From: Anaeroplasmataceae bacterium
GTDB taxonomy: Bacteria; Bacillota_I; Bacilli_A; Acholeplasmatales; Anaeroplasmataceae
DNA length: 64,000 bases
Direction: 5' to 3'
Assembly (NCBI GenBank): GCA_045127955.1
Contig: JBGVRA010000062.1
Coordinates: forward strand, 1,428 to 65,427
Shown here: one piece after another, positions 50,590 through 51,855 of the stretch
How positions within the stretch are numbered: position 1 is the first letter of the stretch
Layout: each line of letters begins with the position of its first letter
Program-made: the position numbers and the translations under genes
Notes under the pieces: model-generated
The model's input: only the letters and a program-made list of their open reading frames with translations
Told to the model about the DNA's origin: nothing
Databases searched by the model: none

Positions 50590-51378
50590 TTAAGATATGG
50601 TTATTATGAGGATACTCGTAATAGCCCTGTCGAAACTCAGCTTTATTGGGTATCCTCACGTTACTATTCGTCTGAATTATGTCGTTGGATTTCACCAGAT
50701 TCAATCGAATATCTAGATCCTCAAAATATTAATGGTTTAAACTTATATGCGTACTGTGGCAATGATCCAATTAACAAATACGATCCTACAGGACACTTTG
50801 GAATCGGATTAACATTACTAATTGCTACTGGCGTTGGTTTAGCTTTTGGTTTTGGTATAGAAGTTGTAAAACAAGCATCTGATGGTGGTAAATTTTGGGA
50901 TTTAAGCACATGGAACTGGAATTTAAGTACGTGGAATTGGTGGGAAATTGGTAAGGCGTCGCTGATAGGAGCAGCAACAGGTTTTGCATATGGTTTAGGC
51001 GGTGTGGCCGGAGGCATTGTAAAAGGATCATTCAAGGCACTAACTATTGCCGGCAAAGCTTTAACGGTTTCACAATCTGTTGGATTGCTATTAGGAACCG
51101 CAGCAGCCACTAATTTCGTTGCTGGAGTTGCTGGATATGCGATGCATACTGCTGGTTCTGAAACTGAAAGTTTTAATATTTTAAAAGGGATTTCAGAAGG
51201 AATTGGTCAAACTGGTAAAGGAGTATTATCATTCTTTACTGCTGGAATGTATGTTGGTTCTGGAGTATGGAAAGTTGGAGTTGGTGCAAAAAATACTTTT
51301 TCATCAATTTTAGGAAGAGCCGCCAGTAAATTTATAGTTAATTACGTACCAAACTATATGTTTGAAAATTTATTCTAA
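50590..51378 (+). CDS. orphan RHS C-terminal cassette (core end plus alternative glycine-rich membrane toxin tip), no start codon
   Basis: The frame is open from 50590. '[67 protein letters not shown]', then about 193 aa of Gly-rich hydrophobic sequence. The track shows only its 3' part (51004-51378). Confidence 0.8.
   Translation, partial: [262 protein letters not shown]
50632..50721 (+). repeat. 90-bp RHS-core homology block, copy 2 (in the orphan cassette)
   Basis: 84/90 identical to 49479-49568. Confidence 0.9.
50902..50943 (+). repeat. 21-nt tandem duplication inside the orphan toxin (LSTWNWN / LSTWNWW)
   Basis: 'ttaagcacatggaactggaat' and 'ttaagtacgtggaattggtgg' are adjacent and in frame. 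Confidence 0.85.
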
Positions 51379-51393
51379 TAAAGGAGAATCTTG

Positions 51394-51855
51394 ATGGTTA
51401 AAATTAAATTGAAATTATTTGAATCTATAGTCGGTGCTATATTATTGCCAAATATAGGATTGTTTTTTACAACGTTATTATTAATCATCTCATTAATAGT
51501 TAAACAAGAACCGATTGTATATAAAGGAATTCTAATTTCATATATAGTTTGCTTATCTTTGATGATTTTTACTTTAGTTAGCTGTTTTTTAGTAAATAAA
51601 AAAAGCATAAAAGAATTTGTTTTAAAAGATAGTGAAATTGAATTTCTTAATCATACTTATCTAACAGATCAAGTAAGTTCTTGTGAATATTATGTATGTA
51701 AATGGTATGCATTGCCGATAGCACTAATCTATAAACAACAAGCGGCGGGATTAATTACCTTTAAATTCAATTCTGGTGAAAAAATTCAATTTAAAATATT
51801 CTATAAAGATTATCTAAAATTAAAAAATAAATTTAAAAATATTATTGTAAAATAG
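51394..51855 (+). CDS. membrane protein (2 TM plus C-terminal beta-rich domain), candidate immunity protein for the orphan toxin
   Basis: AGGAG 7 nt upstream of ATG 51394. Starts 16 nt after the orphan cassette stop. Confidence 0.6.
   Translation: MVKIKLKLFESIVGAILLPNIGLFFTTLLLIISLIVKQEPIVYKGILISYIVCLSLMIFTLVSCFLVNKKSIKEFVLKDSEIEFLNHTYLTDQVSSCEYYVCKWYALPIALIYKQQAAGLITFKFNSGEKIQFKIFYKDYLKLKNKFKNIIVK

Follow-up and report, generated by a model that had tools for sequence, protein, structure and literature searches.

The window analysed here is a stretch of 64,000 nucleotides from an Anaeroplasmataceae bacterium (contig JBGVRA010000062.1), and its forward strand carries a cassette at positions 50590-51855 that consists of the start-less end of an RHS core, a tip of 193 amino acids (aa) and a gene for a protein of 153 aa. 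The cassette is placed after a full-length rhs gene, referred to as the main gene, and the DUF4926 immunity gene of the latter, all on the plus strand. It is most probably a displaced (orphan) rhs toxin/immunity module with a tip that is silent but intact and is predicted to depolarise membranes. The module and its borders comprise the following features.

50439-50589 (plus strand): spacer with stops in three frames; no terminator-like site and no match to any related locus
50590-50631 (plus strand): junction sequence, codons 1-14 of the open frame, without DNA homology to related RHS cores
50632-50796 (plus strand): Rhs core stub of 55 codons without a start; RWISPD and DPTGH (50782-50796) motifs of the C-terminal plug/autoproteolysis region
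50797-51378 (plus strand): putative orphan toxin tip, 193 aa and stop; five predicted long helices, Trp-rich loop, glycine zipper at residues 54-77
50896-50940 (plus strand): 21-nt tandem duplication (2.1 copies, 83% matches) that lengthens the Trp-rich loop of the tip
51381-51389 (plus strand): ribosome-binding site AAAGGAGAA of the immunity gene, as read from the sequence
51394-51855 (plus strand): immunity candidate, 153 aa and stop; two transmembrane (TM) helices, then a PH-like beta-sandwich
51880-51910 (plus strand): terminator-like hairpin with a T-run, 14 bp, -17.2 kcal/mol; right end of the module, with related modules losing homology at ~51891-51965

A preliminary description of this DNA had reported an open frame from 50590 without a start until codon 139, the last ~65 residues of an RHS core with DPTGH at 50782-50796, a 193-aa tip that is unrelated to the main one and made of Gly/Ala-rich hydrophobic helices, and a two-TM protein of 153 aa with a good ribosome-binding site 16 nt downstream. 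All of these readings held. The frame begins directly behind a TAA (50587-50589) and extends to the TAA at 51376-51378. Its 262 codons are fully open, although the GC content of the local DNA is only 20-35%. According to the list of open reading frames (ORFs), codons 1-138 are devoid of ATG, GTG and TTG, and the earliest start in frame is GTG at 51004 (codon 139). An ATG at 50597 is out of frame and yields an alternative-frame ORF of 39 aa. In the three frames upstream, neither a start nor an alternative frame joining the cassette to another coding sequence was found, and an upstream start via another frame was ruled out by the stops in all three frames of the spacer. Lacking both a start codon and a delivery part, the tip is silent at this locus.

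The first 69 residues of the frame matched positions 26-76 of the 76 positions of TIGR03696 (Rhs_assc_core) with E = 3.3e-14, which is above the curated cut-off in NCBIfam, and showed 74% identity to the last part of the main gene's core. DNA homology to RHS cores, namely to the main gene and to the related loci L003, L026 and L027, begins only at ~50628-50632.

Library matches were limited to this core stub. The tip itself had no match in Pfam or NCBIfam, an enzymatic domain was not found in these libraries, and the comparison with the main tip gave a BLASTP E-value of 0.85. Gly makes up 17.6% and Ala 11.4% of the orphan tip, which has several GxxxG motifs as well as an extended zipper between residues 54 and 77. 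AlphaFold2 (31 sequences) predicted five helices at residues 2-28, 48-76, 91-120, 128-154 and 168-192 with a mean predicted local distance difference test score (pLDDT) of 80.7 and a predicted template modelling score of 0.76; the last helix was modelled with low confidence. Helix 1 is strongly hydrophobic and is followed by the Trp-rich loop (residues 29-47). The zipper is located in helix 2 (A54-G58-G62-G66 and G69-G73-G77) and its glycines are invariant across the family. The duplication at 50896-50940 is present in the window, L001 and L003 and is absent from the full-length tips of L026 and L027.

The ATG of the 153-aa gene (51394) is located 16 nt past the stop codon of the tip. For its product, AlphaFold2 (88 sequences, pLDDT 87) predicted TM helices at residues 8-35 and 40-69, with Kyte-Doolittle peaks of 2.26 and 2.47, followed by a helix-capped beta-sandwich. 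The protein had no match in Pfam at E ≤ 0.1, the bPH_2 profile included. The best Foldseek matches of the C-terminal domain were the PH domains of the eukaryotic proteins SSRP1 and Rtt106, with a root-mean-square deviation of 1.8-3.9 Å over ~80 residues. Lysines occur before the first and after the second TM helix; by the positive-inside rule, this suggests that both termini and hence the PH-like domain face the cytoplasm.

Relatives of both proteins were searched in a collection of 5.8 billion proteins. The tip was represented by 38 clusters, all with ≤ 335 aa, and the 153-aa protein by 101 clusters, nearly all with exactly 153 aa. When species-representative genomes were scanned with the 153-aa family, 21 loci were obtained, all of them in gut metagenome-assembled genomes (MAGs) with the labels Bacilli, Clostridia, Mollicutes, Anaeroplasma or Firmicutes CAG:449. 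The state of the tip was recorded for the window and 23 loci (L001-L024).

Complete tip and 153-aa gene: window, L001, L002, L003, L008, L013, L016, L017, L020
Frameshifted tip: L024
Tip reduced to its last 36-67 residues (5'-truncated): L004, L007, L014
153-aa gene alone: 11 loci

Three loci have full-length RHS genes that end in the tip. In L013, a gene for 1623 aa with DUF6531 and RHS repeats is found at 5116-9987, while the metagenome scan with the tip profile gave those of L027 (5146-9972, 1608 aa) and L026 (34-6198, 2054 aa). The tips of the latter two are 90% identical to the one in the window and their 153-aa genes 93-97%. The tip begins right after DPTGH in the window and after a complete RHS core in the three full-length genes; an encapsulation of the tip by the Rhs shell is presumed. 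In most loci, the frame upstream of complete tips consists of a core stub with 33-174 codons. The orphan in L025 has a stub of 53 codons and two in-frame stops in the tip, next to an intact 153-aa gene with 98% identity. Among near-identical modules (82-97% DNA identity), the left ends vary and correspond to positions 50632, 50740, 51176, 51246, 51352, 51378 and 51382 of the window, whereas the right ends are constant at ~51866-51965.

The 153-aa gene follows directly after the tip, at a distance of 9-20 nt, in 13 out of 13 loci with a complete tip. Alone or together with tip remnants, it is present in 14 of the 21 genome loci. A gene that stays intact while the toxin next to it is eroded, frameshifted or stopped carries the signature of an immunity gene, and the assignment of the 153-aa gene as immunity gene of the tip is well supported, though indirectly. 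Its expression, which the preliminary description had deemed probable, would proceed from its own ribosome-binding site. The loci form a graded series from the full-length gene to the intact orphan, the broken orphan and the immunity gene alone, in which the immunity genes outlive the toxins. Their retention bears on the competition of strains in the gut. The preliminary description had regarded the cassette as an orphan C-terminal toxin/immunity module with its own immunity candidate. Both views agree with the full-length genes of L013, L026 and L027 and with a partner that is linked to every complete tip and preserved where the toxin is lost or damaged by truncation, a frameshift or stops. 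Two of the objections it had raised itself, an unnoticed upstream start or join and a lack of homologous full-length genes, did not apply.

The main gene ahead of the cassette contributes three further features.

44526-50225 (plus strand): main full-length rhs gene, 1899 aa; the core ends with DPSGH (49629-49643)
49479-49642 (plus strand): 3' part of the main gene's core with homology to the orphan stub; likely recombination substrate
50241-50438 (plus strand): immunity gene of the main tip, 65 aa, soluble DUF4926 (PF16277, E = 4.8e-11, above the cut-off)

The segments 49479-49642 and 50632-50795 are 89% identical over ~164 nt and the first 39 nt are identical. The main tip (from 49644 on) starts with ~100 Gly-rich hydrophobic aa, behind which a domain with weak resemblance to DUF6883 was detected (E = 3e-4, below the cut-off). 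The preliminary description had called the orphan tip a different glycine-rich membrane toxin. With regard to this wording, the main tip is not just a further toxin of that type; it combines the Gly-rich stretch with a soluble DUF6883-like domain and has a soluble DUF4926 immunity protein as its partner. The two domains of unknown function may represent a toxin/immunity pairing, and the Gly-rich hydrophobic stretch is possibly an entry device. The contrast within the locus, a tip with a soluble domain and a soluble immunity protein versus a tip that is hydrophobic over its whole length and a membrane immunity protein, supports a membrane target of the orphan tip. A recognisable N-terminal secretion domain is missing in the main RHS protein; Pfam detected RHS repeats only and no DUF6531, LXG or PAAR.

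Selection on the cassette was studied by the ratio of non-synonymous to synonymous substitution rates (dN/dS). In loci with both genes intact, the tip had values of 0.06-0.28 and the 153-aa gene values of 0.10-0.30; dS was mostly > 0.7. Together with the 38 tip clusters and 101 immunity clusters, these low values show that the cassette is no chance ORF. Between the tip of the window and the full-length copies in L026 and L027, dN was 0.035 and dS 0.33. Compared to the L003 orphan (97% DNA identity), the tip has eight synonymous and no non-synonymous differences and an identical protein sequence, which has a probability of ~6e-5 under neutrality given the mix of transitions and transversions. 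The frameshifted tip of L024 is relaxed, with 11 synonymous and 13 non-synonymous differences and an indel, and the truncated remnant in L004 has nine synonymous and five non-synonymous ones. For L025, the dN/dS values are artefacts of the in-frame stops and were ignored; its stops and amino acid changes were used. In view of the low dN/dS and the 8:0 pattern, the tip in the window has been kept intact until very recently.

These data bear on the question of whether the tip is a dead relic, i.e. a pseudogene that is not yet disabled and will never be reused, so that only the 153-aa gene is functional and selected. In favour of a relic, the tip has no start codon, and many of its relatives are indeed decaying by the frameshift in L024, the two stops in L025, the 5'-truncations in L004, L007 and L014 and the loss of the toxin in 11 loci; immunity clusters also outnumber tip clusters by 101 to 38. 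Nevertheless, a relic is unlikely. The 262 codons have remained open in DNA of such low GC content, the eight differences from the L003 orphan are all synonymous and leave the protein unchanged, and the homology to the main core has been kept over ~164 nt including the block of 39 identical nt. Besides, the reactivation of orphans by such a recombination is documented in Salmonella (PMC3967940).

For a silent but intact toxin tip, the first functional hint came from more distant relatives. An exhaustive profile search with the tip family yielded 104 proteins at E ≤ 0.001. Among the distant ones are tips on full-length RHS proteins of 1200-2000 aa (P0165, P0175, P0173, P0177, P0191, P0197, P0208 and P0233), and they have an N-terminal pattern in common, namely a hydrophobic helix, E-x-x-K-Q, a W-x-W loop, W-x-x-(I/V)-G and the zipper. 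When a superfamily profile of 20 tips was compared with the Protein Data Bank (PDB), the top match was Tse5-CT of P. aeruginosa (8cp6 chain C) with E = 1.5e-4 and 25 bits. Profile positions 3-52 were aligned with residues 10-73 of Tse5-CT, and the next PDB match had E = 0.22. In hhalign, the match to Tse5-CT extended over 43 columns with a probability of 94% and scored 44, in comparison to 10.3 ± 2.1 (maximum 17.3) for 200 shuffles; a partial single Tse5-CT sequence was used for this profile-profile comparison, since a protein search with a fragment of Tse5-CT yielded just two incomplete proteins. Tse5-CT is set free from an Rhs cage, and it depolarises cells and forms pores with ion selectivity; for its immunity protein Tsi5, two TM segments are predicted (PMC9637101, PMC10684867). 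With this homology as a lead, it is plausible that the tip inserts into the membrane, forms a pore and depolarises the cell, as is predicted from its model and had been proposed in the preliminary description. The link hints, moreover, at a conserved functional module in the N-terminal part of Tse5-CT.

The same N-terminal module (TM helix, KQ, Trp loop and zipper helix) is followed by different C-terminal regions in P0176 (2023 aa) and P0223 (538 aa). In Pfam, these regions gave sub-threshold matches alone, to DUF6782 (putative metallopeptidase family) and DUF2380. The module may carry cargo domains in some proteins.

One might therefore ask whether the tip is not a toxin itself and its Gly-rich helices are a device for membrane entry or translocation, the cargo of which was lost or which acts together with another domain. 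This role has been proposed for the glycine zippers of some effectors (PMC10240207), and it would fit the varying C-terminal parts of P0176 and P0223 as well as the main tip with its Gly-rich hydrophobic stretch ahead of the soluble DUF6883-like domain. However, all close family members including the three full-length RHS genes end in ...PNYxFxNLF without any extra domain or cargo, purifying selection acts on the whole 193 aa, the dedicated partner is a membrane protein and Tse5-CT, which shares the module, is itself a pore former (PMC9637101). A mere entry device is thus very improbable.

A wider interpretation of the module can be offered tentatively, as a possibility with somewhat less than even chances. 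The first ~65 residues of the tip could be an ancient cross-phylum cassette for membrane insertion that Tse5 has in common with an extensive, undescribed superfamily of RHS tips from gut Firmicutes and RF39-like bacteria and that is combined with other C-terminal domains in some proteins. Start-less intact copies would then be kept by purifying selection as a reservoir for recombination and would not be drifting pseudogenes.

The hairpin at 51880-51910 is the sole terminator-like site between 50200 and 52500. Since no such site occurs before 51880, the main rhs gene, its DUF4926 immunity gene, the orphan and the 153-aa gene look like a single transcription unit, and the hairpin probably also ends this operon. 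Another hairpin at ~50510-50537 was rejected as terminator, as it has an AT-rich stem (-10.6 kcal/mol) and no T-run.

A displaced toxin/immunity module could have arisen and could work as follows. The tip and the 153-aa gene would formerly have terminated a full-length rhs gene at its 3' side, an arrangement that persists in L026, L027 and L013. A different pair, the Gly-rich/DUF6883-like tip and DUF4926, would now end the main gene, and the old pair would have been left downstream with 55 core codons. Should the segments 49479-49642 and 50632-50795 undergo homologous recombination, ~1.15 kb would be lost and the tip would become the in-frame continuation of the main core; this reactivation is proposed by analogy to Salmonella (PMC3967940). 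After delivery, cleavage between DPTGH and the following F would release the 193-aa tip, the zipper helices of which would insert into the cytoplasmic membrane of the target cell, oligomerise and dissipate the potential as Tse5-CT does. The 153-aa protein would be made constitutively from its own ribosome-binding site, probably on an rhs operon message that reads through as far as 51880-51910, and would block the toxin in the membrane and guard against neighbours deploying this tip.

Several points weigh against this interpretation. Toxicity, pore formation, protection and expression are all deduced from sequence. When the tip model was searched with Foldseek against the PDB, nothing significant was found (best E = 0.37, generic helical bundles), nor was any resemblance to colicin-type pore domains. 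The similarity to Tse5-CT spans no more than ~50 profile positions, which correspond approximately to helix 1, the loop rich in Trp and the first part of helix 2. Because the homology covers only the first third of the tip, membership in the Tse5-CT family is only partly supported, and with the narrow family profile Tse5-CT was again the top PDB match, but at a non-significant E = 0.42. The PH-like assignment of the immunity protein had E-values of 0.01-0.07 in Foldseek, though with a probability of 1.0. The 8:0 result is no proof of selection in the orphan state, as either lineage may recently have had a full-length gene. For this genome, no recombinant joining the main core to the tip was observed. 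Finally, a promoter scan of 50200-52500 revealed 17 sites compared to 17.0 ± 4.2 in shuffled sequences and is uninformative in such AT-rich DNA.

An internally expressed toxin-antitoxin pair, in which the orphan toxin is made from an internal promoter and start and regulates growth together with the 153-aa protein instead of being a delivered weapon, would have precedents in the Salmonella Rhs toxins reported with internal promoters and translation as type II modules (PMC7043789), in the toxicity of Tse5-CT and of the toxin EsxX from the cytoplasmic side (PMC9637101, PMC12744356) and a conceivable start in GTG at 51004, but it is hardly credible given that no ATG, GTG or TTG precedes codon 139, that translation from 51004 would leave out helix 1 together with the Trp-rich loop and the greater part of the invariant zipper helix, that no Shine-Dalgarno sequence is evident before 51004 and that promoter-like sites do not exceed the level of shuffled sequences.

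The orphan arrangement belongs to a known class, the orphan rhs-CT/rhsI modules of Enterobacteria, e.g. the rhs-orphan of Salmonella Typhimurium LT2 (PMC3150448, PMC3967940). All defining features that can be checked in a sequence were observed: the position behind a main rhs gene and its immunity gene, the fragment of a core end, no signals for initiation or delivery, the tip on full-length genes elsewhere and a linked immunity gene with its own ribosome-binding site. As in the Salmonella orphans, a short core homology is combined with an alternative tip and its cognate immunity gene, and recombination with the main gene is a documented route to their expression (PMC3967940). In contrast to them, the host belongs to an uncultured gut lineage of low GC content (Bacilli/RF39-like) and is not a proteobacterium with a secretion system of type VI (T6SS), the main RHS protein has no recognisable secretion domain, and recombination and activity are presumed by us.

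In its working, the toxin is predicted to be most like Tse5-CT, the ionophore toxins of contact-dependent growth inhibition (CDI) and the glycine-zipper toxins of type VII secretion systems (T7SS). Like Tse5-CT (PDB 8cp6), the tip is located directly after the Rhs autoproteolysis motif, is small (193 aa compared to 149 in Tse5-CT) and hydrophobic and has no enzymatic domain; like Tsi5, which is known here by its description, the 153-aa protein has two TM segments. Differences are that no counterpart was detected for the remaining three helices and the C-terminal motif of the tip, that the immunity protein bears an extra PH-like domain of ~85 aa and that the host is Gram-positive-type and has no T6SS or PAAR, unlike the producer of Tse5.

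The CDI ionophore toxins (CdiA-CT of E. coli EC93 and relatives) are predicted five-helix membrane-spanning bundles with a glycine-zipper helix (PMC11630599). They are likewise polymorphic C-terminal toxins with small membrane immunity proteins, and orphan modules are common in their loci (PMC11630599). No sequence similarity between the tip and these toxins was detected, and unlike the tip they have an N-terminal entry domain that uses a receptor and are delivered by CdiA/CdiB without an Rhs cage (PMC11630599). The T7SS toxins EsxX, TelE and TspA of Firmicutes (immunity proteins ExiCD/TsaI) are membrane-depolarising polymorphic tips with extended glycine zippers (PMC12744356). By description, they resemble the cassette in their zipper tips and membrane immunity proteins, and non-producers, too, can carry the corresponding immunity genes as orphans (PMC12744356). 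They differ in the use of LXG/T7SS delivery instead of RHS, and the cassette has a single immunity gene.

The arrangement is textbook and does not overturn current views; the finding is solid but unsurprising. New are the toxin and immunity families, which have no match in Pfam or NCBIfam and for which no characterised member was identified, the uncultured low-GC gut Bacilli as hosts, the PH-like domain on the immunity protein and the cross-phylum link to Tse5. Toxin switching by orphan cassettes, which is well documented in Proteobacteria, is hereby extended to uncultured gut Bacilli with reduced genomes (RF39-like MAGs from humans, rabbits and ruminants).

Some minor observations were made in the flanks and in related loci. 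Directly upstream of the main rhs gene (43755-44523), a DUF1492 protein and a membrane protein of 132 aa are encoded, and the stop of the latter abuts the rhs start codon. Past the terminator, the ORFs 52456-52839 (127 aa) and 53011-53676 (221 aa) had no family match. No relative was found in a scan of viral contigs with the tip profile, so a phage origin is not supported. Upstream of the orphan in L003 (440-550), a short ORF, MIESVFYSVGIYCRLSLDDGSVGESGSI..., is cut short after 36 codons; it may correspond to the N-terminus of a serine recombinase. L001 contains a main rhs gene and two orphans, while L002 has two orphan modules and no main rhs gene within 10 kb upstream. Several loci contain more than one RHS core-end fragment, each with a different tip: five in L008, three each in L001, L013, L016 and L017 and two in L002. 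Long orphan arrays thus occur in genomes that are thought to be small. The segment of ~67 nt at 51850-51916, which comprises the 3' end of the immunity gene and the hairpin, recurs twice in L006 (2855-2921 and 5594-5660) with 84-88% identity. There it is located at the borders of other modules and may be a shared inter-module junction or terminator element.

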